The notes under the pieces were generated by a model. It did not search any database. It was not told where the DNA came from and saw only the letters and a program-made list of their open reading frames with translations. DNA of 43,551 bases from a virus. Its lineage: Duplodnaviria; Heunggongvirae; Uroviricota; Caudoviricetes. The stretch's first letter is position 1, and each line of letters opens with the position of its first letter. The DNA lies in IMG/VR virus record IMGVR_UViG_2718217869_000004. The stretch is one strand, 5' to 3'. Below are positions 654 to 43,551 of this stretch, in pieces. The translations under genes and the position numbers were made by a program.

Positions 654-835
654 ATTACATGTTCTTGATGATCGCATCACCAAACTCTGAACATTTCAGC
701 AGTTTAGCGCCATCCATCAGACGCTCGAAGTCATAGGTTACAGTCTTGGCGTTGATTGCGCCTTCCATACCTTTAACAATCAGGTCTGCGGCTTCAGTCC
801 AGCCCATATGGCGCAGCAGTAGTTAGATGGTTCAT
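654..835 (-). pseudogene. icd: 3' fragment of isocitrate dehydrogenase gene (icdC-like att-site duplication at prophage end)
   Basis: Minus-strand translation ...[54 protein letters not shown] is the Icd C-terminus; similarity stops abruptly near 835. Confidence 0.85.
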
Positions 836-1263
836 ATACAACCGCATGATAAATAAAAATAATCCTATAATTTTATTGTAAATCAACTGGCTTTTATCTT
901 TCCCCTAACCTATTGATTATCAATGTATGTTTTTTGGTTTTGATAACCGTTTTAGAGGGCAAAAACAAGTGCCTGTACCTATCAGCCCCTTCACGGCAAA
1001 GGGATTTTAAATCATGCGTGTTTTCACAAACTATCAATGGCTTAACTAAATTTTTCGCCAATAACGTACGCTGTGAGTGAGAGGTGGATATGAAGTTACA
1101 CACTCCCGGAAAATAAAGAATTGAGCGTTATCTCATGCTATTAATGAAAAGTGTTTGCTTAATAGATTACATATAACTATGATTCAAGCCCAATTAAAGT
1201 CGTGTGTCTTTGGCTTAAATTGGCAAACAAACAATCAAGTCAAGAATATAAAGGAACTATTCA

Positions 1264-2232
1264 ATGAATAAGAATTATAAAACGTTTAAACTTGAACTAT
1301 GGGAGAAGTTTAAGCATCAATGTGCTTACTGTGGCACTAAACTTTATGAACCATTGATGGCGGATGTTGATCGTTTTTTCCCAAAATCAAAGTATACTGA
1401 CTTCCAAGATGCTACAGACAACCTGCTCATCGCTTGTAAGGCATGTAGCATGATTAAAAAAGATCAGTTTCCTCTCGATGAAAATGGCAAACCATTACTT
1501 CTAAATCCTTTAAATGAAAGTTTTTCAGAACATATAAAACAAAATAAAAATGGATATTTAGAAGGTTTAACTGAGCGAGGACATGCGACTATAGATATAT
1601 TACAGTTGAATAGACCTTCATTAATTGAACAGCGCATTCTAGATGTTATTGATATGCAGTACTCTGATGATCGAACGCTATCTGAACGAGATGTCTATAT
1701 GACATTCCAAAATAGTATGCAGAACGCCATAAAACTAAATGATGCTCAGTTAAAAATTGATAGCACTTTACAAATACAAATGTCGTATATGCTATATGCC
1801 AATACAATAACTTCCTTGGAAACATATTTATGTGACAGATTTATTTCCCTAATTCATGGTAGCCAAACTAATTTGAGAAATTTTGTTGAAACCTTCAAAG
1901 ATTACAATACAGAAAAATTCTTACTTTCTGAATTATTTATAAGGCATGAACAAATAGAGTCTCAAGCGATAGAGTCTATGAAGAGTGTTCTTTATCATAA
2001 TCTGCCAAAAGTAAGTGGCATGTATCGAGATACCTTTGGTATTAAATTCCCTGTTTTCACAGAAGTTTATAAAAGCGTGTTAATTAGGCATGACTTAGTT
2101 CATCGAGCAGGTAAAACAAAAAATGGTAATTTTCATAAGTTAGATTCAGAGTCAGTTAAAGATGTTATCAAAAAATGCTGTGACTTGGTTGAACAACTAG
2201 AAAAAGAGCTTAAAGATTGTGCATCATTCTAG
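1264..2232 (+). CDS. HNH-like nuclease-fold protein (322 aa) with degenerate N-terminal HNH motif and unknown C-terminal domain; AT-rich cargo gene
   Basis: CAYCGTKL...VDRFFPKSKY...DNLLIACKACSMIKKD resembles a C-x2-C...(D/E)H..P.S...NL..C..C HNH finger but with Arg in place of the His and no Asn; strong AT bias versus phage core. Confidence 0.75.
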   Translation: MNKNYKTFKLELWEKFKHQCAYCGTKLYEPLMADVDRFFPKSKYTDFQDATDNLLIACKACSMIKKDQFPLDENGKPLLLNPLNESFSEHIKQNKNGYLEGLTERGHATIDILQLNRPSLIEQRILDVIDMQYSDDRTLSERDVYMTFQNSMQNAIKLNDAQLKIDSTLQIQMSYMLYANTITSLETYLCDRFISLIHGSQTNLRNFVETFKDYNTEKFLLSELFIRHEQIESQAIESMKSVLYHNLPKVSGMYRDTFGIKFPVFTEVYKSVLIRHDLVHRAGKTKNGNFHKLDSESVKDVIKKCCDLVEQLEKELKDCASF

Positions 2233-2428
2233 GTAATTGCCACCAAATCGAAGGTGATCGCGCTTGCGGTCACCAAAAGTAATAAACTATTCATTCCCAT
2301 TCGATCATCTGAACCAACACAATTTTATTTAATAAAGTTGACCTACTTCATTATTTGATACCCATCCAATGTGCGCAAGGGCTGCTTCTGGCACATGGTT
2401 ACCCTTGATGAGAAGGTAGATCACCGCC

Positions 2429-2735: not shown

Positions 2736-3521
2736 ATGGATGAAAAATACAGAAGATTTGTTGATGAGGTTGACTTTTCAAGACAATTATTAGGCATAGG
2801 GCTCACTTCCCTAAGGAAAGCAAATTTTGCAAGTAGAGGATTGTATTTTCAAGCATTATCCGGCATCAGTTTAGGATTAGAAAGGCTTATGAAACTTTGC
2901 CTTATGCTTGATGATTATAATAAAAATGGAAAATATACATCACGCAAAAAATTAAGAGATTACGGTCATAACTTAAGCAAGTTATTCAACCTAGTCATTG
3001 AGAGAGTTGATTCTCCCTCTGGCTTAAATGAAATTCACTACAGAGTGATGGAGTTGTTAACTAATTTTGCAAATTCATCAAGATATAGTAATATTGATTT
3101 CATTACTAATGACAACGACAATGATCCCATGAAGCAATGGTATAATGAAATCGATAAGAGCATTTACGATGAAATATTAACAAAAAGACAAAAAAATATA
3201 ATTGATAAAAAATGCGAGCAATACCGAAGCTATGGTGAAACACTGCCATGCTATGTGCTTGGATATTATGATGAAGACAGAAACCATATAAACTCTGCAG
3301 GGGATTTAAATTATTTACTTAAAAGAAGTGAAATGCTTGCTGGTTATCGCACTTTATTAGTTATTCATATCATAGAATGCATCTATAACATATTAGACTC
3401 AATGACAGTTCAAGCAAAAGATAATCACTTCCACCATCTTGAATTAGGTCGTTTTTTTGCAACCATCATTTATGGCTCTGATAGAGACAAAATCAATAGA
3501 AAAAATTTTATCCGTATGTGA
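2736..3521 (+). CDS. Hypothetical protein (about 261 aa), AT-rich, unrecognised family; candidate accessory/defence gene
   Basis: Long ORF with GAGG RBS 6 nt upstream of ATG at 2736; sits exactly between the two tRNA-fragment direct repeats. Confidence 0.7.
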   Translation: MDEKYRRFVDEVDFSRQLLGIGLTSLRKANFASRGLYFQALSGISLGLERLMKLCLMLDDYNKNGKYTSRKKLRDYGHNLSKLFNLVIERVDSPSGLNEIHYRVMELLTNFANSSRYSNIDFITNDNDNDPMKQWYNEIDKSIYDEILTKRQKNIIDKKCEQYRSYGETLPCYVLGYYDEDRNHINSAGDLNYLLKRSEMLAGYRTLLVIHIIECIYNILDSMTVQAKDNHFHHLELGRFFATIIYGSDRDKINRKNFIRM

Positions 3522-3716: not shown

Positions 3717-4111
3717 TTACAGGGGAAAAACCCCGTCAAATGTTGCCCCCGTATCGCTAGCACACAATGATTAAGTATCTTTTTCACTTTCGGAATTCAT
3801 CAATTCACAAAACCATCATTCCGATTTACCTTACATGCTCCTTTTAAATCTTTAACGGTGTGCACCACTTTTTCTAACTGCCCTATACTTTCAGTCTGAC
3901 ATACGGCTGGAGGTTTCTATGTGTGGACGCTTTTCACAGTCAATGACCCGTGAAGATTATCTTGCCCTTCTCGCTGATGAATCAGAACGCGATATTCCAT
4001 ACGATCCAGAACCCATCGGAAGATTCAACGTAGCGCCAGGAACAAAAGTTCTGCTTCTGAGCGAACGTGATGAGCAGTTGCATCTTGATCCAGTTATCTG
4101 GGGATACGCCC

Positions 4112-5450
4112 CATAAGCGCTAACTTAAGGGTTGTGGTATTACGCCTGATATGATTTAACGTGCCGATGAATTACTCTCACGATAACTGGTCAGCAATTC
4201 TGGCCCATATTGGTAAGCCCGAAGAACTGGATACTTCGGCACGTAATGCCGGGGCTCTAACCCGCCGCCGCGAAATTCGTGATGCTGCAACTCTGCTACG
4301 TCTGGGGCTGGCTTACGGCCCCGGGGGGATGTCATTACGTGAAGTCACTGCATGGGCTCAGCTCCATGACGTTGCAACATTATCTGACGTGGCTCTCCTG
4401 AAGCGGCTGCGGAATGCCGCCGACTGGTTTGGCATACTTGCCGCACAAACACTTGCTGTACGCGCCGCAGTTACGGGTTGTACAAGCGGAAAGAGATTGC
4501 GTCTTGTCGATGGAACAGCAATCAGTGCGCCCGGGGGCGGCAGCGCTGAATGGCGACTACATATGGGATATGATCCTCATACCTGTCAGTTCACTGATTT
4601 TGAGCTAACCGACAGCAGAGACGCTGAACGGCTGGACCGATTTGCGCAAACGGCAGACGAGATACGCATTGCTGACCGGGGATTCGGTTCGCGTCCCGAA
4701 TGTATCCGCTCACTTGCTTTTGGAGAAGCTGATTATATCGTCCGGGTTCACTGGCGAGGATTGCGCTGGTTAACTGCAGAAGGAATGCGCTTTGACATGA
4801 TGGGTTTTCTGCGCGGGCTGGATTGCGGTAAGAACGGTGAAACCACTGTAATGATAGGCAATTCAGGTAATAAAAAAGCCGGAGCTCCCTTTCCGGCACG
4901 TCTCATTGCCGTATCACTTCCTCCCGAAAAAGCATTAATCAGTAAAACCCGACTGCTCAGCGAGAATCGTCGAAAAGGACGAGTAGTTCAGGCGGAAACG
5001 CTGGAAGCAGCGGGCCATGTGCTATTGCTAACATCATTACCGGAAGATGAATATTCAGCAGAGCAAGTGGCTGATTGTTACCGTCTGCGATGGCAAATTG
5101 AACTGGCTTTTAAGCGGCTCAAAAGTTTGCTGCACCTGGATGCTTTGCGTGCAAAGGAACCTGAACTCGCGAAAGCGTGGATATTTGCTAATCTACTCGC
5201 CGCATTTTTAATTGACGACATAATCCAGCCATCGCTGGATTTCCCCCCCAGAAGTGCCGGATCCGAAAAGAAGAACTAACTCGTTGTGGAGAATAACAAA
5301 AATGGTCATCTGGAGCTTACAGGTGGCCATTCGTGGGACAGTATCCCTGACAGCCTACAAAACGCAATTGAAGAACGCGAGGCATCGTCTTAACGAGGCA
5401 CCGAGGCGTCGCATTCTTCAGATGGTTCAACCCTTAAGTTAGCGCTTATG
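4112..5450 (+). mobile_element. IS186 (IS4 family), 1339 bp, with 23-bp terminal inverted repeats and 10-bp target duplication
   Basis: Ends CATAAGCGCTAACTTAAGGGTTG ... CAACCCTTAAGTTAGCGCTTATG; flanking direct repeat GGATACGCCC at 4102-4111 and 5451-5460. Confidence 0.9.
4167..5279 (+). CDS. IS186 transposase (370 aa)
   Basis: Translation MNYSHDNWSAILAHIGKPEELDTSARNAGAL... matches the IS186 transposase; lies between the IRs. Confidence 0.9.
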   Translation: MNYSHDNWSAILAHIGKPEELDTSARNAGALTRRREIRDAATLLRLGLAYGPGGMSLREVTAWAQLHDVATLSDVALLKRLRNAADWFGILAAQTLAVRAAVTGCTSGKRLRLVDGTAISAPGGGSAEWRLHMGYDPHTCQFTDFELTDSRDAERLDRFAQTADEIRIADRGFGSRPECIRSLAFGEADYIVRVHWRGLRWLTAEGMRFDMMGFLRGLDCGKNGETTVMIGNSGNKKAGAPFPARLIAVSLPPEKALISKTRLLSENRRKGRVVQAETLEAAGHVLLLTSLPEDEYSAEQVADCYRLRWQIELAFKRLKSLLHLDALRAKEPELAKAWIFANLLAAFLIDDIIQPSLDFPPRSAGSEKKN

Positions 5451-5936
5451 GGATACGCCCCCGGTTGGTGGGATAAACCGCCGCTCATTAATGCACGGTC
5501 TGAAACTGCTGCCACCAGCAGAATGTTTAAACCACTCTGGCAGCATGGCCGCGCAATTTGCTTTGCTGATGGATGGTATGAGTGGAAAAAGGAAGGCGAC
5601 CAAAAACAACCCTACTTTATTCACCGGGCAGACGGTCAGCCGATTTTTATGGCGGCGATCGGCAGCACACCATTCGAACGTGGAGATGAAGCAGAAGGTT
5701 TCCTGATAGTTACAGCTGCAGCTGACAAAGGACTGGTTGATATTCACGACAGACGACCACTGGTACTGCTACCGGAAGCCGCGCGTGAATGGATGAGGCA
5801 GGATGTTGGAGGGAAAGAAGCAGCGGAAATTGCAGCCGACGGTGTTGTACCGGCTGATAAATTTATATGGCACGCCGTAACGCGTGCCGTCGGGAATGTG
5901 AAAAATCAGGGCGCCGAACTAATAACGCCAATATGA

Positions 5937-6358
<422 letters not shown>

Positions 6359-6360
6359 GG

Positions 6361-6603
6361 CTAAAGTCCTCCGTTTGGATTGAACAGCTGAAAGGTTCGG
6401 TTCTCGCCTTCCTGCGTTGATACATCGCGGAATGTTGTCACATAACATTCTATCCAATCGTTGGCCTGCTTCATCGTCCAGTGCCAGTTAACCTTACCCA
6501 GTTCCTGGACAAACCGCTGTGTGGTGACAGTCTTCCGGCCATTCGGTTCTCGCTGTATCGAAGCATGCCAGGCTATTTCAATATCGCTACGTTGTGGCAT
6601 CAT
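6361..6603 (-). CDS. Hypothetical small protein (about 80 aa) immediately upstream of and translationally coupled to the UmuD-like gene; possibly ImpC-like
   Basis: ORF MMPQRSDIEIAWHASIQREPNGRK...; its stop is 2 nt from the UmuD-like ATG; LexA box 40 bp upstream; start codon choice uncertain. Confidence 0.5.
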   Translation of the reverse strand: MMPQRSDIEIAWHASIQREPNGRKTVTTQRFVQELGKVNWHWTMKQANDWIECYVTTFRDVSTQEGENRTFQLFNPNGGL

Positions 6604-6677: not shown

Positions 6678-6920
6678 ATGTTCGTGGAACTCGTTTATGA
6701 CAAAAGGAATTTTGATGGCCTGCCCGGTGCAAAAGATATCATTCTGGGCGAATTGACTAAGAGGGTTCACCGGGTCTTCCCTGATGCTGATGTCCGGGTA
6801 AAACCGATGATGACACTGCCGGCGATCAACACTGACGCCAGCAAGCATGAGAAGGAACAGATAAGCCGTACTGTTCAGGAAATGTTTGAAAAGGCTGATA
6901 TGTGGCTGGTTTCAGATTAA
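6678..6920 (+). CDS. dinI: DinI family protein (DNA damage-inducible protein I homologue, 80 aa)
   Basis: Size and C-terminal ...QISRTVQEMFEKADMWLVSD resemble DinI (...QRISEILQETWESADDWFVSE); AGAGG RBS; LexA box upstream. Confidence 0.8.
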   Translation: MFVELVYDKRNFDGLPGAKDIILGELTKRVHRVFPDADVRVKPMMTLPAINTDASKHEKEQISRTVQEMFEKADMWLVSD

Positions 6921-7048: not shown

Positions 7049-7600
7049 TCAACGCCGCGCAGGAAATTTTTTGTATAGCGTCGACACCCCTACATCATAA
7101 ATTATAGCCACACGTTTTCTAGACTCACCTGCAGCAATCAACCTTCCAGCCTGAGCCCACTCTTCTGCGGTTAACTTTGGTCGTCTGCCGCCGATCCGAC
7201 CATCTTCGCGCGCAGCAGCTAAGCCAGCCCGTGTTCGCTTAACAATAAGCTCTCTTTCCATCTCGGCAAGCGCCCCCATGACATGAAAGAAAAAGCGCCC
7301 CATTGGTGTTGAGGTATCTATACTGTCGGTCAGGCTACGGAAGTTTACCCCTCGCTCCCTCATTTCTTCGACCAGCACGACAAGATGCCGCATGCTGCGA
7401 CCGAGGCGATCCAGCTTCCAGACAACCAGAGTGTCACCTTCCGATAATGTCCTGAGCAGTTTTTTCAATCCCGGCCTTTCGGACTTTGTACCGCTTATCT
7501 TGTCTTCAAAAATCAGCTCGCATCCTGCACAGTTCAGCGCATTACGTTGTAGATCTGTGTTCTGGTCATTTGTTGACACACGTACATAGCCAATAAGCAT
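7049..7600 (-). CDS. pin: Pin/Gin-family DNA invertase (serine recombinase)
   Basis: MLIGYVRVSTNDQNTDLQRNAL...VVWKLDRLGRSM...HTH tail; typical resolvase/invertase motifs; next to the invertible tail-fibre segment. Confidence 0.9.
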   Translation of the reverse strand: MLIGYVRVSTNDQNTDLQRNALNCAGCELIFEDKISGTKSERPGLKKLLRTLSEGDTLVVWKLDRLGRSMRHLVVLVEEMRERGVNFRSLTDSIDTSTPMGRFFFHVMGALAEMERELIVKRTRAGLAAAREDGRIGGRRPKLTAEEWAQAGRLIAAGESRKRVAIIYDVGVSTLYKKFPARR

Positions 7601-7654: not shown

Positions 7655-7680
7655 TTTTCATAAATGTTGGTTTGGGAGAA
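7655..7680. other. Inversion crossover site 1 (gix/pix-like 26-bp site)
   Basis: TTTTCATAAATGTTGGTTTGGGAGAA; reverse complement shares half-site TCTCCCAAACC-AA with site 2 and resembles gix TTATCCAAAACC. Confidence 0.65.
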
Positions 7681-8169
7681 GGCTCTGCATTACCTGTTGG
7701 TGTCCCTGTTCCGTGGCCCTCAGCCACTCCGCCAACAGGCTGGCTAAAATGCAACGGAGCAGCTTTTTCTGCTGAAGAATATCCGGAACTGGCAAAGGCT
7801 TACCCGACAAATAAATTGCCTGATTTACGCGGTGAATTTATCCGTGGCTGGGATGACGGGCGTGGTATTGATGCTGTACGTGCCTTGCTAAGTCTTCAGA
7901 ATGGAGGAGTGGAATCACACACCCACCAAGGGCAGCTCTTCAGAGTTAGTGATTATCGTACAAAAGAAATACCAGCATCAGAAGTTATGGGAAGAGGATA
8001 TATTGCAAGCCTGACGCCGGGTGCTGATAGCCCACTTGATTTTGATGATTATTCTGTATCTTCTAATCCAAATGGATATTTTGTCGGGAATCAGAGAACA
8101 ACAGCATATGGGATAAATGAAACCCGTCCACGGAATATTGCATTTAACTATATCGTGAGGGCTGCATAA
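7669..8169 (+). CDS. Alternative tail-fibre C-terminal variable segment (silent in current orientation)
   Basis: ORF ...GAAFSAEEYPELAKAYPTNKLPDLRGEFIRGWDDGRGID... typical fibre tip; frame at the crossover site matches the constant fibre N-terminus after inversion. Confidence 0.7.
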   Translation, partial: GLGEGSALPVGVPVPWPSATPPTGWLKCNGAAFSAEEYPELAKAYPTNKLPDLRGEFIRGWDDGRGIDAVRALLSLQNGGVESHTHQGQLFRVSDYRTKEIPASEVMGRGYIASLTPGADSPLDFDDYSVSSNPNGYFVGNQRTTAYGINETRPRNIAFNYIVRAA

Positions 8170-8771
8170 TGGATAATGCTGTATTAAATAGCGAGTTTAT
8201 TGCTACAAAGGCGGGGAATATTACCGTCTATAACTATGATGGCGAAACACGGGAATATATTTCCACATCAACTGAATATCTTGCCGTTGGTGTCGGTATC
8301 CCTGCATATTCCTGTTTAGATGCCCCTGGCACATACAAAGCTGGTTATGCAATCTGCCGATCTGTAGATTTTAACTCATGGGAATATGTGCCAGACCATC
8401 GCGGTGAAATCGTCTTTAGCACCGAAACAGGAGAATCAAAAGAAATCACAGCTCCGGGTGATTACCCTGATAATACAACCACTATCGCCCCGTTAACGCC
8501 ATACGATAAATGGGATGGTGAGAAATGGGTGACGGATACCGAAGCACAGCATAGCGCCGCAGTAGATGCAGCAGAAGCACAGCGCCAGTCACTGATTGAT
8601 ACTGCAATGGCTTCAATCAGTCTGATTCAGCTGAAATTGCAGGCCGGACGTAAACTGACGCAGGCAGAAACAACCAGCCTTAACGCTGTGCTGGATTACA
8701 TTGACGCGGTGACGGCAACAGATACCAGCACCGCGCCGGATGTCATCTGGCCTGAACTGCCGGAGGCGTAG
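8169..8771 (+). CDS. tfa: Tail fibre assembly protein (Tfa, alternative cassette)
   Basis: MDNAVLNSEFIATKAGNITVYNYDGETREY... Tfa-like; conserved C-terminal ...DAVTATDTSTAPDVIWPELPEA shared with the other Tfa. Confidence 0.8.
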   Translation: MDNAVLNSEFIATKAGNITVYNYDGETREYISTSTEYLAVGVGIPAYSCLDAPGTYKAGYAICRSVDFNSWEYVPDHRGEIVFSTETGESKEITAPGDYPDNTTTIAPLTPYDKWDGEKWVTDTEAQHSAAVDAAEAQRQSLIDTAMASISLIQLKLQAGRKLTQAETTSLNAVLDYIDAVTATDTSTAPDVIWPELPEA

Positions 8772-29364: not shown

Positions 29365-29410
29365 TTGTAGTTATCTCTCACCTGCGATTATTTGCGGGTG
29401 CTGTGTTGGA

Positions 29411-29436: not shown

Positions 29437-29460
29437 TGATTTAATTATTCACATTAATCG

Positions 29461-30852: not shown

Positions 30853-30913
30853 TTTTATTCTCCTGCATTTTTTTCGAAAACTATAACATCATTCTTTTTG
30901 GCAAGCCTTTCCT

Positions 30914-30940
30914 AAACGCAAAAACCCGCACAATGGCGGG
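30914..30940 (-). terminator. Rho-independent terminator-like hairpin downstream of the Q-like gene
   Basis: Minus strand CCCGC-cattgt-GCGGG followed by TTTTTGCGTTT. Confidence 0.5.
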
Positions 30941-30991
30941 TTCTTACTATTATGTTGCTCAGTTCGCTTTTCGTCCCGAGCTTATCACAAT

Positions 30992-31570: not shown

Positions 31571-31584
31571 TTAGAGTTCTCCAC

Positions 31585-32580: not shown

Positions 32581-32581
32581 C

Positions 32582-34773: not shown

Positions 34774-35267
34774 TAAGCCCCCACGTAATTCCCTGACAGA
34801 TACCACTCTTCACCCGATGCAGCGCGCTTGCTGCTTTTCCGTAAGCACCGCTCACGACGCGCCAGAAAATTGTTTCGTTCTGGCTGGGAGTGGCTTTCAC
34901 GGAATGCCGCCATCCACACGGTTGCAGCACGACGAAATAAGCCCCTGGACTCCAGTTCTTCCGCCTGGCGGGCCAGGTACAAAATCACCCGCGGGTCGTT
35001 AGTGCCGACATAGAAATTGCGCACAGGTCTGGTTTCACGAACTGGTTGCCGTTCCGCCTCCGGCGATATCTTTGTCTGGCGCGGGAAATGTCTGCGTGTA
35101 TCCCCTTCACAACGGTGAGCCACACGCCCACTCTGACGTAACTTGCTTGCTGACTGCAGAACGCGCTGCCGTGAGTAACCTGCAAAAGCATCCGCAATGT
35201 CACCGGAAGTACACCCCGGATGGGCTTCAATGAATTTCTGAACGTCATTTAACAGACTCATGATCAC
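34773..35267 (-). CDS. Hypothetical phage protein (YfdN-like, 164 aa)
   Basis: ORF between the replication gene and the methylase; Arg-rich C-terminus. Confidence 0.55.
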   Translation of the reverse strand: MIMSLLNDVQKFIEAHPGCTSGDIADAFAGYSRQRVLQSASKLRQSGRVAHRCEGDTRRHFPRQTKISPEAERQPVRETRPVRNFYVGTNDPRVILYLARQAEELESRGLFRRAATVWMAAFRESHSQPERNNFLARRERCLRKSSKRAASGEEWYLSGNYVGA

Positions 35268-36205
35268 CCCCTGAATCCTGCCGGGATCTGGCTGTAGTCC
35301 ACGTTGTCGTAACTGGCTTTGAAGTACGGGTCCTCGCGTTTTTCGGTGTACGTACTTACGGACGGCGATAAGCGCAGGGAAAGCTCATCCCATTTTTCCC
35401 GCAGCTTCGACGGGCTGAGCACGTTACGGCACCAGAACGGATCGCGGCTGACGCGGCTGTACATCTCGCAGATTTGTTTGTGAGTACGACCATCCTGCAC
35501 ACACATCAGGCGAATTTCGTTTGCCCAGGCTGTCCAGTTCGGTTCTTTGGGACGAACCACCTCGCCGTCACATTCGGCAGCCTGCTCGTACAGGGCGATG
35601 ATTTTTTTCCAGAGCCACTGTGCGCAGGTCAAATCATCCTGCGTTCCCCACTGGCGCTTTTTAGGGCTGAATACAACAGCATCAGGATGGCGAGTTAAAA
35701 ACTCCTGTTCAGCCGTCTGCGTGTCCGGTTGCGAAGCGTCCGGACGAGAAGTTTTTTTATCTGACGGATCATGTTTTGATTTTACTGACGGATCCCCGCC
35801 AGATTCTGACGGGTGAAAACCCGCTTTTTTGCCAGATTTCGACGCATCAAATTTTGACGGGGCAGATTTTGATGCGTCAGATTTTGACGGGTCAGAATCT
35901 GACAGTTGAGAAAATGCCGCTGCCTGAAGCTTCGCAACGTTAAGCTGATAAACATTCGACGCATTGCGGTTACCCTGGCGACGCGCCTTACGCGTTAACC
36001 AGCCTTCTGCTTCCAGCCGTGCGATAGCCGTTCTGACGGTACTCATCCCCGCGCCAATCTGGCGGGCAATGGTTTCAATTGATGGCCAGCACACACCTTC
36101 GTCATTACTGAAATCAGCCAGGCGGGCCATAATTGCCACGCTGGATAACTTCATGCCTGACGCAGCGCAACCATCCCATACATAGCCGGTTAATTTAGTG
36201 CTCAT
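35264..36205 (-). CDS. Replication initiator protein (N-terminal HTH, O-like) containing the iteron array
   Basis: N-terminal ...CWPSIETIARQIGAGMSTVRTAIARLEAEGWLT wHTH; central low-complexity SKSDASKS region encoded by iterons. Confidence 0.75.
   Translation of the reverse strand: MSTKLTGYVWDGCAASGMKLSSVAIMARLADFSNDEGVCWPSIETIARQIGAGMSTVRTAIARLEAEGWLTRKARRQGNRNASNVYQLNVAKLQAAAFSQLSDSDPSKSDASKSAPSKFDASKSGKKAGFHPSESGGDPSVKSKHDPSDKKTSRPDASQPDTQTAEQEFLTRHPDAVVFSPKKRQWGTQDDLTCAQWLWKKIIALYEQAAECDGEVVRPKEPNWTAWANEIRLMCVQDGRTHKQICEMYSRVSRDPFWCRNVLSPSKLREKWDELSLRLSPSVSTYTEKREDPYFKASYDNVDYSQIPAGFRG
35755..35909. repeat. Iteron array (about 8 copies of a 15-bp AGATTTTGACGGgTC-like unit): putative origin of replication inside the initiator gene
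   Basis: Direct read of tandem imperfect repeats ttttactgacggatc / agattctgacgggtg / aaattttgacggggc / agattttgatgcgtc / agattttgacgggtc / agaatctgacagttg. Confidence 0.7.
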
Positions 36206-36214
36206 GACCGACCT

Positions 36215-36553
36215 CTATTTCCCTGAATTTACGACGAAACTGTTCGAGCGGGCTGAAGCACTCATGCTCATAGCCTTCGCGGAGGTAGATAACCCGTTGT
36301 GTTTCCGGCTCCCAACGAATGACTCTGACGGGCACTCCGTAGTGATCTTTGAACCAGCGGTTAACTTGTCGCAAAGGACTGTCTCCTTCTGCCGGTTGAA
36401 ATCACCCACAGCCCACTCTGCAAAGCTGTGGGTTACAATTTCCCTGTCACCTGGTACATTTACTGCATAGCAATACTCCACCTTCGCTTTTCCACCCGGT
36501 ACAGGAAGCGCAATCAGTTGCGAGCGACGGTAGTGTGTTGTTAAACTGTTCAT
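36215..36553 (-). CDS. Hypothetical protein; C-terminal half looks low-complexity and a plus-strand ORF overlaps, so the call is uncertain
   Basis: Minus-strand ORF in a minus-strand operon context. Confidence 0.3.
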
Positions 36554-37158
36554 GCGTTAGTTTCTCCACAGTCACGACACGCCACGGCGCCCGGAGCTGC
36601 ACACTCGCGGGCGTCATTACTTTCTGAAATGCAAAAAATTTTGTAGACCAGTGCTGCATGCTCCTGCAGCTTCGAAATTGAGAGGTACAGCTCGTCGTTA
36701 ATTGCTGTCTTCTCATGCGGTTCCACTACACCGTCTTCAATTGCTGAACGAATCTGTTTTGAATAACTGCCGATCTGTTCAATGACTTCCAGCAGGCGCT
36801 GGTTAATATCGGCGTTGTCCACATCCTCGACGTCAGGAAGAGACACAAAGACGCCATTTGCAGACTGCGCCACAGCGTCAGCAATGAAGTGAGTTCCACC
36901 AGCACGTTGCAAAATCATTGCCCATCCCAGCGGGAAAATCTGATCGCCATCGGCACGAAGGCGGTTAAATAATGCGTTCTCTGTTACATCCAGCCAGTCA
37001 GCTGCTTCAGCGTAACCACCCGGCAACTTTGCGATAGTTTTTCTGACAGCTTTCACGTACCACTCAGGCTGTTTTTCTACTTTCCAGTGATGCTTACCCA
37101 CGGTTAGCCTCATCGTTCTGTGGTTTCTGTTAATCGATTTATCCATTAGATTTTTCAT
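36550..37158 (-). CDS. Phage regulatory protein, CII-like
   Basis: Position immediately downstream of cro-like gene; family call from memory, start codon uncertain (37146 or 37158). Confidence 0.5.
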
Positions 37159-37339
37159 AAAGCTCAGGTTTAAATGGCAACCGTCCGCAAGTTCTATATG
37201 CAGCTTCTGCTGCACGTCCTTTTGGAATTAACTGGCCCGGACGGTTTCGCCACTGATAAACGGCTTCAGTTGTTATGCCGAAAAAAGCAGCAACTTTCTC
37301 AATACTGCCGAAGTAGCTTTCGATATCGTCAGTTGTCAT
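37139..37339 (-). CDS. cro: Cro-like HTH regulator
   Basis: 66 aa, ...GSIEKVAAFFGITTEAVYQWRNR... HTH; divergent from the CI-like repressor. Confidence 0.75.
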   Translation of the reverse strand: MTTDDIESYFGSIEKVAAFFGITTEAVYQWRNRPGQLIPKGRAAEAAYRTCGRLPFKPELYEKSNG

Positions 37340-37436
37340 ACGCCCTCCAAACTAAGTTTTATTAGATGCTAATTACAAATCTATCTTTGGTCAATAAAAA
37401 CTAAGATTACTTAGTAATTAAAGAAATGGTGCTCCT
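37340..37436. promoter_or_regulatory. Divergent immunity promoter/operator region (between cro-like and cI-like genes)
   Basis: AT-rich 97 bp with repeated ACTAAG half-sites: ACTAAGattaCTTAGT palindrome at 37400-37415 and actaagttttattagat at 37351-37367. Confidence 0.6.
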
Positions 37437-38063
37437 ATGGAAACGGTTGGTCAGCGTATAAAAGCTCTGAGAAGAGTTACCAGAACGTCCCAGAAAGAAT
37501 TGGGTAAATTTTGTGGAGTAAGCGACGTTGCTGTGGGGTACTGGGAGAAAGACATCAATACCCCTGGTGGGGAGGCACTTTCGAAATTAGCGAAGTTCTT
37601 CAATACGTCAATAGATTACATTCTTTATGGTGCTGAGTTTGAAGGCAAACTCGTCACAAACATGCGCAGAGTTCCTGTAATATCGTGGGTTCAGGCTGGG
37701 CAGTTTACTGAGTGCAGGGCAGCAGAAGTGTTTAGTGAAGTGGACAAGTGGGTAGATACATCATTAAAGATTGGTGATAACTCATTTGCATTAGAGGTTA
37801 AAGGTGACTCCATGACTAACCCTAATGGCCTCCCAACAATACCAGAAGGCGCAACAGTGATTGTAGATCCAGATGCAGAACCTCGTCATGGAAAAATAGT
37901 CATCGCTCGACTTGATGGAACAAACGAAGCTACAGTAAAAAAATTAGTCATCGATGGCCCTCAAAAGTTTTTAGTGCCATTAAATCCTCGGTATCCCAAC
38001 ATCCCTATCAATGGTAATTGCCTTATCATTGGTGTAGTCAAAGGAGTTCAATACGAACTCTAA
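37437..38063 (+). CDS. cI: CI-like repressor (HTH plus S24 LexA-type autopeptidase domain)
   Basis: N-terminal HTH (...SQKELGKFCGVSDVAVGYWEK...), C-terminal ...GDSMTNPNG...KIVIARLDGTNEATVKKL with Ser/Lys dyad. Confidence 0.9.
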   Translation: METVGQRIKALRRVTRTSQKELGKFCGVSDVAVGYWEKDINTPGGEALSKLAKFFNTSIDYILYGAEFEGKLVTNMRRVPVISWVQAGQFTECRAAEVFSEVDKWVDTSLKIGDNSFALEVKGDSMTNPNGLPTIPEGATVIVDPDAEPRHGKIVIARLDGTNEATVKKLVIDGPQKFLVPLNPRYPNIPINGNCLIIGVVKGVQYEL

Positions 38064-38248: not shown

Positions 38249-38545
38249 ATGTTAAAGCAGGTGTATGAAATGAAAGTCCAGATTTTAAACAATAACTGTG
38301 AAGTCGTTTGGTCATACGACATAGCCGCCCATGTAGATCAGAGCGGCGATAGCTGGGCCAATGGGAAACATCAGATTATGGCTGGAGTTGTATTCTCTTT
38401 ACGCCGTGCTTTAGAACAGGCTGAAGTCTTTCCATCAGACCCTGAATGGAAATGGCCTTTTTCTATTTGTCCAAATTCGGAGAGTACATTTCAGAAAATT
38501 GGTCAGAAAGTCGCACTCGAAGAGCATCAGCCAACTGTTTCCTGA
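38249..38545 (+). CDS. Hypothetical protein (about 91-98 aa)
   Basis: ORF downstream of the cI-like gene; 3' end overlaps the convergent ORF. Confidence 0.4.
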   Translation: MLKQVYEMKVQILNNNCEVVWSYDIAAHVDQSGDSWANGKHQIMAGVVFSLRRALEQAEVFPSDPEWKWPFSICPNSESTFQKIGQKVALEEHQPTVS

Positions 38546-38708
38546 TTTTTTCAGGTAACTCGTCGGCATCGCAGAAACAACAACGCTCGATCATGTTGAA
38601 AGCCGATTCGTAGAACTGTTTTTGCTGAGTGTCGCTGAGACAGGAAAAGAGCGACGTTACGATGATTTTATTAATTGCATTATCAAGTTCTTTTTCATCA
38701 AAAGTCAT
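38463..38708 (-). CDS. Hypothetical protein (81 aa)
   Basis: ORF MTFDEKELDNAINKIIVTSLFSCLSD...; convergent with and overlapping the preceding ORF by 83 nt. Confidence 0.4.
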   Translation of the reverse strand: MTFDEKELDNAINKIIVTSLFSCLSDTQQKQFYESAFNMIERCCFCDADELPEKIRKQLADALRVRLSDQFSEMYSPNLDK

Positions 38709-38817
38709 TTGATTTTCCTTTTATGTATACGGGCTTAAAAGGATACCACCGAGCCTGAAGTGGTGAAAAGACAGGCACATAACAGCTAAGTATTTTCAAC
38801 CAGAGAGAATCCTTAGC

Positions 38818-39097
38818 GTTGTGGTGAATGCGGCTCAGCGCACGCGGGTTAAGGTTGAGGCTGACAGTCGACCTTCTGTGGATACCCACCCGCCTGGTGT
38901 GCAACCTTCGCCAGGCACCGGGAGGCACCCGGCACCACAACTTTATGCTGTGTGTAGTCCTGGCGGTACCAGTTTGTACACTTGCTTCCGGCTGGTACCG
39001 CTCTTTTTACAAAACAGAGAAGAGCATCACCGGACGACGGGCTCATAACCCAATCCATCCGGGCGGCTGCCACCGCAGGTGTTCTTCTCTGTTTTGT
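38818..39097. ncRNA. Candidate structured non-coding RNA or DNA element (GC-rich, multi-hairpin), upstream of the yfdP-like gene
   Basis: No credible ORF; 9-bp helix GTTGTGGTG/CACCACAAC (38818-38826 with 38934-38942) enclosing sub-hairpins, 10-bp perfect stem 38963-38972/38992-39001, 18-bp stem 39009-39026/39080-39097. Confidence 0.35.
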
Positions 39098-39145
39098 GGA
39101 GAAACTAATCGGCCTTGCAGGGTCGATATGATGAGGAGCAACAAA

Positions 39146-39508
39146 ATGGCTAGCGAACGCAGTACTGATGTGCAGGCATTTATCGGGGAGCTGGACGGCG
39201 GCGTATTTGAAACAAAAATCGGCGCAGTTCTCAGTGAAGTCGCTTCCGGTGTGATGAACACGAAAACCAAAGGTAAGGTCTCACTCAACCTGGAAATCGA
39301 ACCATTTGATGAGAACCGTGTGAAAATCAAACACAAACTCTCATATGTTCGCCCGACTAACCGCGGGAAAATTTCCGAAGAAGACACCACCGAAACGCCG
39401 ATGTATGTCAATCGCGGTGGTCGCCTGACTATTCTGCAGGAAGACCAGGGGCAATTACTGACTCTTGCCGGTGAACCTGACGGAAAACTCCGCGCAGCAG
39501 GTCATTAA
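39146..39508 (+). CDS. YfdP-like phage protein (120 aa)
   Basis: ORF from MASERSTDVQAFIGELDGG...; upstream in-frame extension is GC-rich non-protein-like sequence. Confidence 0.65.
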   Translation: MASERSTDVQAFIGELDGGVFETKIGAVLSEVASGVMNTKTKGKVSLNLEIEPFDENRVKIKHKLSYVRPTNRGKISEEDTTETPMYVNRGGRLTILQEDQGQLLTLAGEPDGKLRAAGH

Positions 39509-39573
39509 TATCGTTCTTAATTAACTGATTATTTATCTCATCACTGAATATCTTTATATAGTGAGGACTTATT

Positions 39574-40398
39574 ATGTCTCAGAACTTAGACGCAACCGCA
39601 ATTAATCAAATCCATGCCCTTATTTCTGCTCAGGGTGTTAATGAAATTATCAGTAAGATTGGTGCCGATGCTGTGGCATTGCCTGAGAATTTCCGCATTC
39701 ATGATCTGGAAAAATTTAATTTAAATCGTTTCCGTTTCCGTGGTGCGCTTTCCACTGCCAGCATCGATGACTTTACCCGTTATTCTAAAGATCTTGCAGA
39801 TGAAGGCACCCGCTGCTTTATCGATGCCGATAATATGCGTGCCGTCAGTGTGCTTAACCTGGGTACTATTGATGAGCCAGGTCACGCAGATAACACTGCC
39901 ACTCTCAAACTGAAAAAGACAGCACCGTTCTCTGCTCTGTTGTCTGTTAATGGCGAGCGTAACTCCCAGAAGTCACTGGCAGAATGGATTGAAGACTGGG
40001 CCGACTACCTTGTGGGCTTTGATGCTAATGGTGACACCATTCAGGCAACCAAAGCGGCTGCGGCGATCCGTAAAATCACAATTGAAGCGAACCAGACCGC
40101 TGATTTTGAAGATAATGACTTCAGCGGCAAACGCTCCCTGATGGAGTCTGTCGAAGCGAAGACCAAAGACATTATGCCAGTGGCATTTGAATTTAAATGC
40201 GTTCCGTTTGAAAGCCTGAAAGAACGTCCGTTTAAATTACGCCTCAGCATTATCACTGGCGATCGTCCTGTACTGGTTCTGCGCATTATTCAGCTGGAAG
40301 CAGTGCAGGAAGAAATGGCTAACGAATTTCGTGATCTGCTTGTTAAGAAATTCAAGGACAGCAAAGTAGAAACCTTTATTGGTACTTTCACCGCCTGA
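39574..40398 (+). CDS. YfdQ-like protein (DUF2303 family, 274 aa)
   Basis: Full-length ORF with RBS; yfdP-yfdQ-yfdR gene order as in CPS-53-type prophages (from memory). Confidence 0.75.
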
Positions 40399-40525
40399 TT
40401 TCATTACTGCAAATGCCCCTGCGGGGGCATTTATGGAAACGTAATTGACTCAATAATCGCCGGATGGTGAGGGCTTCCTTTTACCAGAATTCAGCGCGGT
40501 GCAGCGCATATACGTGGAGAACAAA

Positions 40526-41062
40526 ATGTCATTTATTAAAACTTTTTCCGGGAAGCATTTTTATTATGACAGGATAAATAAAGACGACATCGTTATTAAC
40601 GATATCGCGGTTTCTCTTTCAAATATCTGTCGCTTTGCAGGACATCTTTCACATTTCTACAGCGTCGCCCAACATGCGGTGCTTTGCAGCCAACTGGTAC
40701 CGCAGGAATTTGCTTTTGAAGCGTTAATGCATGATGCAACAGAAGCGTATTGCCAGGACATCCCCGCTCCACTGAAACGCCTTCTTCCTGACTATAAACA
40801 GATGGAAGAAAAAATAGACGCCGTAATCCGTGAGAAATACGGGTTACCCCCGGTTATGAGTACGCCCGTGAAATATGCCGATCTCATCATGCTGGCAACA
40901 GAACGCCGCGATCTCGGGCTAGATGATGGCTCTTTCTGGCCTGTGCTAGAAGGTATCCCGGCAACAGATATGTTCAAAGTGATTCCAGTGGCACCAGGGC
41001 ATGCCTACGGGATGTTTATGGAACGTTTTAAAGAGCTGCATAAGATACATAAGCAATCCTGA
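40526..41062 (+). CDS. YfdR-like HD-domain phosphohydrolase (5'-deoxynucleotidase-like)
   Basis: HD motif ...FAGHLSHFYSVAQHAV...MHDATEAY...; GGAGAA RBS before MSFIKTF start. Confidence 0.8.
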   Translation: MSFIKTFSGKHFYYDRINKDDIVINDIAVSLSNICRFAGHLSHFYSVAQHAVLCSQLVPQEFAFEALMHDATEAYCQDIPAPLKRLLPDYKQMEEKIDAVIREKYGLPPVMSTPVKYADLIMLATERRDLGLDDGSFWPVLEGIPATDMFKVIPVAPGHAYGMFMERFKELHKIHKQS

Positions 41063-41117: not shown

Positions 41118-41363
41118 ATGCTTCAAATGCTGACACTTGAGGAATGGGCTGCAGAAAAATTTAGGAGTAATCCTCCAAGTGTGTCCACATTGCGTCGTTA
41201 TGCTAAGCAGAATTTATTTTGTCCACCGGCAATGAAACAAGGTCGACTGTGGCGAGTACGTGAGGACGCAGAGTTAGTTGGGGAATTAGTTACTCCAGTA
41301 ATCAAGAAAAGTGATTCTATTATTCTGCAAAGGATTTTAAGCAATGGCAGCCAGACCACGTAA
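41118..41363 (+). CDS. xis: Excisionase (Xis)
   Basis: 81-aa ORF immediately upstream of and overlapping int; ...LTLEEWAAEKFRSNPPSVSTLRRYAK... excisionase-like. Confidence 0.8.
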   Translation: MLQMLTLEEWAAEKFRSNPPSVSTLRRYAKQNLFCPPAMKQGRLWRVREDAELVGELVTPVIKKSDSIILQRILSNGSQTT

Positions 41364-42471
41364 AAATAATGTTTCAGTACCTAACTTGTATCCGCTTTAT
41401 AGCAGAAAAGTAAATAAAGTCTATTGGCGATATAAGCATCCAGTGACCGGGAAATTTCATTCGTTGGGCACAAATGAAGCTGAAGCTATTGCTATTGCCA
41501 CTGAAGCTAACACTCGTCTGGCTGAGCAAAGAACCCGGCAGGTTCTAGCTATCAGTGATAGGATCGCAACCAGCAAAGGAAAAACTATAACAACATCATC
41601 ATGGTTAGAGCGTTACCAAGCTATTCAGGATGACAGGCTGAAAAGTGGTGATATAAAGCTCAACACCTATAAACAGAAAGCCAAACCAGTATCCTTGCTC
41701 AGGGAACGAGCAGGAATGAAGTTAATTTCATCCGTTGATGTAAGGGATATCGCACAATTGCTTGACGAGTATATCACTGCCGGGCAACCGAGGATGGCGC
41801 AAGTAGTCCGCTCCGTTCTAATTGATGTATTCAAGGAGGCACAACACTATGGGGAGGTCCCTCCTGGCTATAATCCAGCATTAGCGACCAAACAGCCCAG
41901 AAGAAAAATTACCCGACAACGGTTAAGTCTTGAAGAATGGCAAAAAATCTTTGATATCGCAGATGCCAGTCATCGTTATATGGGGAATGCCATGCTGTTA
42001 GCACTGGTTACCGGTCAGAGGTTAGGTGATATCTCGCGTATGAAATTTAGCGATATTTGGGATGATCATCTTCACGTCATCCAGGAAAAAACCGGGAGCA
42101 AAATCGCCATCCCGCTTTCCCTGCGCCTCAATGCAATTAACTGGAGTTTACGCGATGTAGTAGCCCGCTGCCGTGACTATGCAGTCAGCCCATACCTTGT
42201 ACATTTTTTTCGTACGACTTCACAGGCTGAACGTGGCGCGCAGGTTAAAGCCAATACATTGACGATGAATTTCACTAAAGCGAGGGATTTGGCGGGAATT
42301 GATTGGGGGGATGGAACTCCTGCAACATTCCATGAACAACGGTCTTTATCTGAACGTCTATACAAAGAACAGGGGTTAGACACACAAAAGTTGCTGGGAC
42401 ATAAATCACCTAACCAAACAGCTCGATACCATGATGATCGTGGGAAAGATTGGGTTAAAGTAGCCCTCTGA
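41344..42471 (+). CDS. int: Tyrosine integrase (lambda Int family, e14 IntE-like)
   Basis: 375 aa, MAARPRKNNVSVPNLYPLYSRKVNKVYWRYKHP...; C-terminal catalytic region ...HEQRSLSERLY...LGHKSPNQTARYHDD. Confidence 0.9.
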   Translation: MAARPRKNNVSVPNLYPLYSRKVNKVYWRYKHPVTGKFHSLGTNEAEAIAIATEANTRLAEQRTRQVLAISDRIATSKGKTITTSSWLERYQAIQDDRLKSGDIKLNTYKQKAKPVSLLRERAGMKLISSVDVRDIAQLLDEYITAGQPRMAQVVRSVLIDVFKEAQHYGEVPPGYNPALATKQPRRKITRQRLSLEEWQKIFDIADASHRYMGNAMLLALVTGQRLGDISRMKFSDIWDDHLHVIQEKTGSKIAIPLSLRLNAINWSLRDVVARCRDYAVSPYLVHFFRTTSQAERGAQVKANTLTMNFTKARDLAGIDWGDGTPATFHEQRSLSERLYKEQGLDTQKLLGHKSPNQTARYHDDRGKDWVKVAL

Positions 42472-42504
42472 CAAATGAAGGCTACTAGATAGCAGAAGAC
42501 ACAT

Positions 42505-43551
42505 TTAGCGTACCGCTGGTTCTGCTTGAGCTGGCGGATCATTAGGTATGATCAAATTAAACTGACCACGAGCAACATGTCCGTTTTCGGTCACTTCTAA
42601 ATAGCTAATTCTTACTACCTCACCAGTCACAATAGCGGAGGCAAGCGCCTGTAACTCAACCGGGCGAGCAATATCCTCAGCTACTTTTATAGTAAAACTC
42701 TCTCCATTACTGACCCGGATCACACTTAAGTTTAACTCAGAGCTTGATATTCCGGATCGAGAGAGCCCCTTAATATAAAAGTTATCAAAGCGTTCTGTTC
42801 TTTCTCTGTCAACACTTTGCCTGTTTCGATAATCCTGAAGGGCTGCACCATCATATTGTTGATTTCCGATCTTTACGGACTCAGCATCTGACGCGACCGA
42901 TTTAAGCAAAGAGGACTTTCCATCTTCACCATGTGCTTCAATTTCGCGGCTAAGACTAGTTTCTCCCCTACGTTTGACCTCTCTCCCCAACTCAAATGAG
43001 CGTGTCATACCATCTACTACCGTTTGAGTCGTCTGAGTTTGAGCATTTAAGTCTGCGGCATGATCTTGGCTATTTGTGTACAAATAATAGCAACCACCTA
43101 CCGTCAAAGCGGTAATCAGTGCTAGCAAAATTGTCATTTTCTGAACGCCAGTCATACCTTCAAACGCTCCCGTGAGGAATGCAAGAAACTGATTAATGGT
43201 ACCTGACCAGTCAGTCTCTGAATCAGTAGAACCTTCCTTTATTTTAAATATAACATCCAAAGACTGTTTATCTTCATTAGTCAGCCTTTGTAAATTTGAG
43301 GTGCCATACTTCGCCAATGCATAAGCACGTTGAAATGACTCATGCATACTCGCCAAGCCATACACCATAGAGCTAGTCAGTGAAGAATGAAATTTTTCAC
43401 CTTTTACATTGATATGAAGATTCGGCCACCCTTGAAAATCTATATCTGCAGGTATATCAGCACCGGGATGTTCGGTTTCCTTTTGTAGAAAATCATCCAC
43501 AACGTTCCAAAATGTTTCTGCATTCTCAATAACAATTGCTGCATCAGTCAT
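42505..43551 (-). CDS. Hypothetical membrane-anchored protein (at least 348 aa; N-terminus at window edge, may be truncated); AT-rich cargo next to int
   Basis: Single central hydrophobic helix MTILLALITALTVGGCYYLY between two soluble domains; convergent with int. Confidence 0.7.
   Translation of the reverse strand: MTDAAIVIENAETFWNVVDDFLQKETEHPGADIPADIDFQGWPNLHINVKGEKFHSSLTSSMVYGLASMHESFQRAYALAKYGTSNLQRLTNEDKQSLDVIFKIKEGSTDSETDWSGTINQFLAFLTGAFEGMTGVQKMTILLALITALTVGGCYYLYTNSQDHAADLNAQTQTTQTVVDGMTRSFELGREVKRRGETSLSREIEAHGEDGKSSLLKSVASDAESVKIGNQQYDGAALQDYRNRQSVDRERTERFDNFYIKGLSRSGISSSELNLSVIRVSNGESFTIKVAEDIARPVELQALASAIVTGEVVRISYLEVTENGHVARGQFNLIIPNDPPAQAEPAVR

Follow-up and report, generated by a model that had tools for sequence, protein, structure and literature searches.

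An apparently full-size SfV/SfII-type mosaic prophage with e14-like integration and fibre-switching modules in the 3′ end of icd

What did e14, the prophage that occupies icd in Escherichia coli K-12, look like before it decayed, and does a complete phage of the same kind occupy the same attachment site? The question is raised by a DNA stretch of 43,551 nucleotides, IMG/VR record IMGVR_UViG_2718217869_000004 (the whole of which is referred to here as the window), in which the initial annotation, made from the letters alone, had recognized a full-size mosaic phage at the e14 attachment site. Our analysis indicates that the window, from base 819 to its end, very probably belongs to a single temperate phage genome of about 43.1 kb, a mosaic of the SfV/SfII type lodged in the 3′ end of icd and equipped with an e14-type integration module and fibre cassette. 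Its gene content is in all likelihood complete, and the case for this rests primarily on its uninterrupted reading frames and on its alignment with viable relatives and with e14 itself.

One set of uninterrupted phage genes

A first gene map was taken from the RefSeq annotation of related loci in the E. coli genomes Ecol_545 and GF8, every window gene was then translated, and the connectors, the packaging HNH gene, the fibre and the fibre chaperone were assigned by PHROGs. Internal stops were found in none of the window genes, and uninterrupted genes are present for integration and excision, repressor and switch, replication, late activation, lysis, packaging, head and tail. The module order, comprising a P27-type small terminase subunit (TerS), a large subunit (TerL) and an HNH gene, an HK97-type head, and a Mu-like sheath, tube and baseplate, is like that of SfV and SfII. 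Specifically, window 9613-26877 aligns to SfII as one piece with 97.8% nucleotide identity, and from TerS through the tail protein gp48 each packaging, head and tail protein is full length and shares 91-100% amino acid (aa) identity with its SfII counterpart.

The packaging module (24540-27240, -; coordinates are those of the window, with + and - denoting the strand) comprises TerL (24540-26273, -) and a P27-family TerS (26270-26773, -), both 97-99% identical to the SfV and SfII proteins, together with a putative cos region (26774-26889, -) and a packaging-associated HNH endonuclease (26890-27240, -; PHROG 144). Across the cos junction, the sequence agrees at 93-94% with the SfII and SfV ends when these are joined. 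Next to this module, the genes of an HK97-type head (major capsid protein, prohead protease, portal and YmfR; 21257-24528, -) encode proteins 98-100% identical to those of SfII, with the portal-protease-capsid set being only 25-28% identical to that of SfV. The head-tail joining genes (tail terminator, Neck1, head closure, adaptor and a 66-aa open reading frame (ORF); 19237-21208, -; PHROGs) are 91-100% identical to SfII. The Mu-like contractile tail module (9918-19228, -), which encodes gp48/YmfQ, gp47, gp46, gp45, gp44, gp43 (DNA circulation), the tape measure, an assembly chaperone, tube, sheath and DUF2635 proteins, shows 98-100% aa identity over the full length to both SfV and SfII, and its small ORFs (DUF2635 and the chaperone) are open. 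A whole-genome comparison with e14, SfV and phiP27, suggested at the outset as a check, revealed colinearity with e14, tail and terminase genes shared with SfV, and a more distant phiP27, which aligns at 78.6% over part of the structural region.

Colinearity with e14

The excisionase (xisE, 41118-41363, +; Pfam Exc) and the integrase (intE, 41344-42471, +; Pfam Arm-DNA-bind_1 and Phage_integrase) match K-12 XisE and IntE over their full length with 91% and 94% aa identity, respectively, in agreement with their initial assignment as e14-like. Proteins of e14 matched elsewhere in the window include Pin (91%), TfaE (90%), YmfL (94%), YmfM (98%) and YmfQ (98%). Matches at 98-99% extend to e14 pseudogenes for the N-terminus of the replication protein O, the TerL C-terminus, YmfR and the portal N-terminus: identity reaches 99% between portal residues 1-139 and e14 BeeE, 98% for YmfR and its e14 counterpart, and 99% between O residues 1-79 and e14 oweE.

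In nucleotide alignment, e14 follows the window colinearly, the gaps being 11281-23938 (12.66 kb) and 25677-35971 (10.3 kb), and the aligned e14 blocks overlap by 3-4 bp at both deletion junctions. Judged by this colinearity, K-12 e14 is the same phage backbone after two internal deletions, and the proposal of a full-size mosaic phage at the e14 attachment site is borne out. One sequence would then show e14 before its decay, with both deletions mapped to the base.

The window is a mosaic beyond this backbone. By tblastn, K-12 mcrA and lit have no match in the window, the window cro does not match e14 cro, and cI shares 42% identity with the e14 repressor in the C-terminal domain only. Sorted by nearest relative, int/xis and the fibre switch are of the e14 type, the tail, terminase, early-left and nin regions are of the SfV/SfII type, and the head is of the SfII/e14 type. 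The immunity region is common only to sister prophages at icd, while the Q gene, Rz/Rz1, iss and a gene for a 463-aa NTPase derive from none of SfV, SfII, GF8 and e14.

The icd attachment site and the prophage ends

The window contains one icd-like copy, an icdC-like pseudogene fragment (654-818, -) that constitutes the displaced host icd 3′ end and hence the host-side att copy. This 165-bp fragment matches the icd 3′ end (last 164 nt plus 1) at 157 of 165 positions; the K-12 annotation of e14 likewise contains a 165-bp icdC and assigns the last 165 bp of icd to e14 DNA, so that the icd duplication is e14-like, as first described. In the prophage-free genome ES1, with an intact, unoccupied icd, the match to window 1-818 ends exactly at 818, a base that lies 164 nt from the icd stop codon in ES1. 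The prophage therefore starts at 819, and the limit of att homology, correctly placed near 818-835 in the first reading, is exactly 818/819. The fragment has GAT (Asp) where the icd of the lysogen has GAA (Glu), which identifies 654-818 as the displaced host copy; the same conservative Asp/Glu replacement in icd is documented for e14 (PMC6379469). Over the 28 nt adjoining 818 (791-818), the two icd 3′ copies agree fully, and the crossover would have to fall within this stretch.

Inward of the boundary lies the left, or att, arm of the prophage (819-1263), with a small ORF (894-1103, -) conserved in GF8 and in a metagenome contig of a relative. In a blastn comparison with e14, window 604-953 aligned at 82.6%, and 819-953 is homologous to the e14 mcrA-icdC spacer. 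Outward lies host DNA, namely a partial IS200C (1-603, -) onto which the RefSeq annotation of Ecol_545 maps, with its tnpA (1-459, -; RefSeq annotation of Ecol_545) and its 5′ leader RNA STnc490 (469-592, -; Rfam RF01405, 146 bits). GF8 is without IS200, and its homology to the window begins at 604.

At the opposite end, the window stops at the ATG of a cargo gene for a 348-aa protein (42505-43551, -), located by RefSeq context between int and icd, the position of lit, ymfD and ymfE in e14. In Ecol_545 and GF8 this gene sits between intE and icd, 188 bp from the icd stop codon, which places the second att copy, and icd with it, outside the window. We estimate that the real icd and this att copy would be found some 190-350 bp past base 43551, and the prophage length at 43,086 bp. 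The partner icd 3′ copy, being outside the window here, was observed in relatives only. Of the extent originally assigned, 835-43551, the location in icd stands, whereas the left end is at 819 and not 835, and the right end is past the window.

These observations also bear on whether the window holds two elements in tandem, an e14-like remnant and a separate phage. Double occupancy of icd does occur: in two independent contigs (L016, 4474-5914, and L018), the left arm of this phage type directly follows an icd 3′ copy, and this copy terminates a lambdoid prophage that has gam, recT, yqaJ and an integrase with 60% identity to IntE. We take this 60%-identical integrase to be of the phage-21 class. 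In the window, by contrast, int, cI, terminase, head set and tail set each occur once, as does the icd-like copy, and no internal att or icd copy, second integrase or second terminase was found. One icd-like copy with one non-duplicated phage gene set points to one element, and a tandem pair is extremely improbable.

Sister prophages and continuity of the gene order

The closest complete genome is E. coli Ecol_545, in which window 1-19074 matches one locus at 99.5% and window 22001-43551 matches another at 99.8%. In that chromosome, the icd prophage and a sister SfV-like prophage at ssrA have swapped arms via a large chromosomal inversion, and the remaining halves of the two prophages are about 1.7 Mb apart in the record. 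The identity of the window alternates between the two Ecol_545 copies in several-kb blocks, suggesting gene conversion between co-resident sister prophages.

The exchanged arms and the alternating identity are also what would favour reading the contiguous order of the window as a recombinant, or an assembly chimera, of two SfV-like sisters (at icd and ssrA) in one genome. GF8, however, carries a contiguous sister prophage with the same icd-to-icdC order and one copy per module, and matches in CDF6, AH01, fEC.1 and 22AR0747 cover the same distance. Moreover, gene conversion between co-resident sisters would give patchy identity while keeping the functional gene order. We consider a chimera very unlikely and retain the reading of a single phage genome.

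Full-size sisters at icd are present in the complete genomes of GF8, GF75, GF161, CDF6, AH01, fEC.1, 22AR0747 and WR3-3. More broadly, of 5426 complete E. coli genomes, 494 carry intE and 284 have the K-12-type e14 deletion junction, leaving about 200 genomes with intE but without that deletion. A record named ‘vB_EcoM-689R6’ was considered as an isolated phage and rejected, being a region predicted by PHASTER in which icd and further host genes are included. The SfI genome paper had already placed e14-type prophages close to SfI and SfV and pointed to a 19-kb ‘e14’ region in strain S88 (PMC3636060), and the literature documents intact icd prophages such as NC-SV (PMC12803456). The element is thus ordinary and not new: near-identical prophages have already been deposited and annotated, and there are good earlier descriptions of the phage family, its attachment site and its invertase switch. 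Current understanding is unchanged by it.

The invertible fibre segment

The serine DNA invertase gene pin (7049-7600, -; Pfam Resolvase 1e-50 and HTH_7; 91% to K-12 PinE) adjoins an invertible segment of about 1.96 kb (7662-9630), recognized by its inverted repeat. The crossover sites, TCTCCCAAACCAAGGTTT in inverted orientation (7662-7679 and 9613-9630), have an AAACC-AA-GGTTT core, presumably typical of Gin/Hin/Pin sites. The tail fibre gene (9234-9914, -; PHROG tail fibre families) consists of a constant N-terminus of 95 residues (9631-9914, -) and, in the expressed orientation, a variable C-terminus (9234-9612, -) with its chaperone gene tfa (8743-9231, -), while an alternative fibre C-terminus (7680-8169, +) and its own tfa (8169-8771, +) lie in the silent orientation. 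When the segment is inverted in silico, the constant N-terminus joins the second C-terminus in frame, giving a 263-aa fibre followed by a 200-aa Tfa chaperone. The crossover sites and the in-frame simulated inversion, together with the Pin and TfaE identities (91% and 90%), agree with the initial description of pin and the segment as e14-like. Fibre conservation among relatives is restricted to residues 1 to about 100-120, and homology to SfII, GF8 and e14 breaks in all cases exactly at 9613, which indicates that the crossover site doubles as a mosaic joint.

Immunity, replication, late control and lysis

The immunity region (37139-38063) comprises cro (37139-37339, -; Pfam P22_Cro), a 97-bp operator region with CTAAG..CTTAG palindromes (37340-37436) and cI (37437-38063, +; Pfam HTH_3 and Peptidase_S24), in which the helix-turn-helix, the Ala-Gly cleavage motif, GDSM and the Lys could all be read. 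It is not homologous to the immunity regions of e14, SfV and SfII. A strict scan for LexA boxes found none near the switch or the SOS-type cargo. Rightward of cI, the early-left operon (38249-41062, +), with orf98, a 226-aa ORF including yfdP, yfdQ and the HD hydrolase gene yfdR, is 95-99% identical to SfV. The 226-aa ORF (38828-39508, +) runs without interruption where RefSeq divides it into a ‘frameshifted hypothetical’ and yfdP. SfV also keeps this 226-aa frame open (99%), and the RefSeq pseudogene call is therefore probably an annotation artefact.

On the other side of cro lie a CII-like ymfL (36550-37101, -; 94% to K-12 YmfL; Pfam Phage_CP76), a ymfM homolog (36215-36553, -; 98% to K-12 YmfM) and an O-like replication initiator gene (35264-36205, -; Pfam HTH_36 and DnaD_N; 99% to the SfII protein); the O-like gene and the order of its neighbours recur in SfII. 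Within O, about four 15-bp iterons, which can also be read as two 30-bp units, occupy 35833-35896 (Tandem Repeats Finder (TRF), period 15, 4.3 copies). By analogy with lambda, they probably mark the replication origin. The 112-aa ymfM homolog overlaps a 59-aa DUF4222 ORF in another frame (36195-36374, -; Pfam 9e-19), which the Prokaryotic Genome Annotation Pipeline annotates in its place; K-12 YmfM is a cell-division inhibitor.

Downstream of O, a nin-like region (31585-35267, -; 86-100% to SfV and SfII; Pfam) encodes DUF968, KilA-N and RusA proteins, a protein with a LexA DNA-binding domain, a Dam methylase and PerC/YfdN. It is followed by the late antiterminator gene Q of the DUF1133 type (30992-31570, -; Pfam DUF1133 5e-89, profile 1-176/176; Phage_antitermQ 3e-8). 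The lysis cassette (28091-29364, -; Pfam Phage_lysis 1e-53) comprises a holin (29029-29364, -) and a GH24 endolysin (28549-29025, -), which are 91-98% identical to those of SfV, and Rz (28091-28552, -) with an embedded Rz1 (28150-28332, -), the translation of which contains the lipobox VVVGC.

Inducibility and particle formation

For these genes, the steps of a temperate life cycle can be deduced from well-characterized homologs. The phage would carry the last 165 bp of icd, such that integration by IntE keeps icd functional while displacing the host copy (654-818). The S24-type cI would hold the prophage silent until cleaved in the SOS response. Xis and Int would then excise the genome, and O with its iterons would replicate it. 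Q would switch on the late operon, with transcription passing through the NTPase cargo gene before it reaches the genes for lysis, terminase, head and tail. Finally, Pin would flip the 1.96-kb segment and, with two fibre C-termini that each have their own chaperone, host range may alternate.

The head, tail, lysis and regulatory modules consist entirely of uninterrupted ORFs, with TerS-gp48 at 91-100% to SfII, as their initial description as complete would have it. Disruption of essential genes, a finding that would have counted against that description, did not emerge on closer analysis: the only damaged genes in the prophage are cargo genes, namely a SRAP gene interrupted by IS421 and a humD-like gene thrown out of frame by a (GCTG)11 tract. 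Induction is accordingly plausible on the gene content, and the balance tips slightly towards a prophage that actually yields infectious particles.

Several observations weigh against this view. The second att copy is outside the window. At about 43.1 kb including a 1.3-kb IS421, the genome is 4% longer than that of SfII (41.5 kb) and 16% longer than that of SfV (37.1 kb). The 20 nt after the HNH stop codon, in the putative cos region, diverge from both SfII and SfV, and other lambdoid lineages are the source of Q, of Rz/Rz1 and of the immunity region. In Ecol_545, the element is split by the inversion with its sister prophage. Finally, a search of a phage collection for e14-type integrases at ≥90% identity returned one record only, a PHASTER-predicted prophage region with host genes.

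Some of these observations are equally expected of a prophage that is complete in its ORFs but grounded, that is, cryptic, perhaps able to excise and yet forming no infectious particles. Possible reasons include a genome made over-length by IS421, an altered cos, mismatched Q/late-promoter or immunity modules, and point mutations invisible to homology. The 1337 bp added by IS421, the divergent first 20 nt of the cos-proximal region and the lack of an isolated phage with an e14-type integrase in the phage collection all fit, and the cargo pseudogenes indicate a residence long enough for decay. Against this stand the full-length TerS-gp48 proteins, 91-100% identical to those of a viable phage, the restriction of damage to accessory genes and the retained autocleavage motifs of cI. 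SfII, furthermore, is viable with two insertion sequence elements of its own in accessory regions, and such elements in accessory DNA are therefore compatible with viability. We regard a grounded prophage as a substantial possibility, albeit one less probable than a functional phage.

To look for the unintegrated form, the left junction was used as an exact query against IMG/VR and metagenome contigs, yielding two IMG/VR contigs and three metagenome contigs. These five correspond to two ordinary host junctions, two tandem double lysogens and one attP-form sequence from a relative; an attP form of this exact phage was not found among the IMG/VR and metagenome contigs, which hold it in integrated form only. 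The attP-form sequence is a 21.9-kb metagenome contig (L019; OIWQ01002060.1, 95-5094) whose Int and cI are 86% and 90% identical to those of the window. Its order, cI-xis-int-spacer-one icd copy-left arm-cargo-fibre, is that expected of attP, and its single icd 3′ copy is 88.6% identical to E. coli icd. The contig is evidence for non-integrated phages with e14-type integration, unless it stems from tandem lysogens, which would give the same order.

If the functional reading is right, the window describes a candidate live phage that combines SfV-type virions, Pin-driven fibre switching and integration in icd.

Cargo genes and candidate defence slots

Near the left end, the prophage carries genes for a 322-aa HNH nuclease (1264-2232, +; PADLOC PtuB 1e-23 and mREase_IV 2e-11) and a conserved 261-aa cargo protein without assigned function (2736-3521, +), neither of which has a Pfam hit. 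The likeness of the former to PtuB and to type IV enzymes rests on its HNH domain only. The pair fills the slot that mcrA occupies in e14 and recurs in GF8, CDF6, L016 and L017. An identity of the HNH gene with McrA was considered and ruled out, tblastn giving no match to K-12 mcrA.

Adjoining pin is a cluster of SOS-related cargo consisting of SRAP, humD-like and DinI-family genes. The SRAP/YedK-like gene (SOS-response-associated peptidase; 3919-5936, +) is split by IS421 (4113-5449), a 1337-bp element with inverted ends flanked by a 12-bp target duplication, GGGATACGCCCC, read directly; the GF8 counterpart is uninterrupted and 669 bp long. The humD/umuD′-like S24 gene (5937-6474, -) is out of frame, being frameshifted by a perfect (GCTG)11 tract at 6250-6293 (TRF). 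Near-identical sister prophages carry 13 (CDF6) or 14 (GF8) units, and the ortholog in Nissle 1917 is intact, with 148 aa and no long tract. Repeat numbers of 9, 12 or 15 would restore an ORF of 167-171 aa or longer. The tract may represent either a slipped-strand contingency locus or part of a decaying pseudogene, with phase variation of the humD-like gene as a possibility. The DinI-family gene (6678-6920, +; RefSeq orthologous loci) encodes a protein 100% identical to that of GF8.

Between Q and the holin gene, a slot that we take to be the stx position in Stx phages, lies a gene for a 463-aa STAND/AAA_16-type NTPase (29461-30852, -; Pfam AAA_16, AAA_22 and nSTAND1). The stretch is low in GC (0.40-0.44), and the gene is absent from SfV, SfII, GF8 and e14. 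The protein gives generic P-loop/STAND hits only and belongs to no PADLOC system, and its family is widespread, with 665 clusters of approximately 450-aa proteins without assigned function. Beyond the lysis genes, an iss/bor lipoprotein gene (27766-28059, +; Pfam Lambda_Bor 6e-31; RefSeq ‘Iss’) is present as a moron. The 348-aa protein at the right end has no Pfam, NCBIfam or PADLOC hit; its family comprises 57 clusters, all from Enterobacterales, and in its AlphaFold2 model (pLDDT 76) only an OB-like C-terminal domain is discernible. A Yersinia homolog lies in a moron island between the lambda-like tail genes K and I.

Overall, four insertion spots carry uncharacterized cargo, and cargo sits where e14 has McrA and Lit. 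Tentatively, the cargo positions by attR, between Q and holin, and between int and attL may be exchangeable anti-phage defence slots, with at least one cargo gene being an undescribed defence gene; we consider this less likely than not. Candidates for such a gene would be the HNH nuclease resembling PtuB together with the 261-aa protein encoded next to it, the STAND-type NTPase of 463 aa and, at the right end, the 348-aa OB-fold protein. For the host, the element may represent an inducible phage that brings iss/bor, a serum-survival gene, and several candidate defence genes. It also lends itself, as in Ecol_545, to inversion of large parts of the chromosome by exchange with a sister prophage.

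Comparison with known systems

Among known elements, e14 (15.2 kb, in icd) shares with the window element its attachment site and the same 165-bp duplication of the icd 3′ end. The two are alike, and colinear, in YmfL, YmfM, the O N-terminus, the TerL C-terminus, YmfR, the portal N-terminus, the gp47 C-terminus and YmfQ (92-99%). By contrast, e14 is without most tail and head genes, the TerL N-terminus, TerS, lysis genes, Q and the nin region. Its cargo consists of mcrA, lit, ymfD and ymfE, whereas that of the window element comprises the genes for the PtuB-like HNH nuclease, the 261-aa protein, SRAP, the humD-like protein, DinI, the 463-aa NTPase, Iss and the 348-aa protein, and the e14 immunity system (YmfK/CohE repressor) is unrelated to the cI/cro of the window.

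The sister prophages (GF8, GF75, GF161, CDF6, AH01, fEC.1, Ecol_545 and 689R6) use the same site, have the same module order and are mostly 96-100% identical, sharing the 348-aa gene, intE, the immunity region, the structural genes and the left-end cargo. GF8 differs in having no IS421 or IS200, other fibre cassettes, another Q/lysis module, and neither the 463-aa NTPase gene nor iss. Lambdoid prophages of the phage 21/NC-SV type target icd as well, with an integrase class 60% identical to the window Int, but, as siphoviruses, have structural genes like those of lambda and an integrase of another specificity class.

The nearest viable phages are SfII, SfI, SfIV and SfV, cos-packaging myoviruses that convert the serotype of Shigella flexneri. 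Besides TerS-gp48, SfII shares O, YmfM, the nin region, the holin and the endolysin with the window, while SfV shares the tail, terminase and early-left genes and has a different portal-protease-capsid set. All four differ from the window element in integrating at thrW by means of an unrelated integrase, in carrying gtr O-antigen modification genes, and in having a fixed fibre, pin and an invertible segment being absent. Comparison of the window proteins with the gtr and int regions of SfV and SfII yielded no match, and the window element shows neither serotype conversion genes (gtrABC or oac) nor thrW integration. The immunity, Q and Rz regions of the Sf phages differ as well. Finally, the inversion system resembles the Gin/Cin/Hin/Pin systems (the Mu G, P1 C and e14 P segments), in which the invertase gene likewise adjoins a segment in the fibre gene, inverted sites are of the AAACC-AA-GGTTT type, and two alternative fibre C-termini each have their own chaperone. 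In contrast to the inversion systems of Mu, P1 and e14, the predicted switch described here lies in an otherwise complete SfV-type phage.

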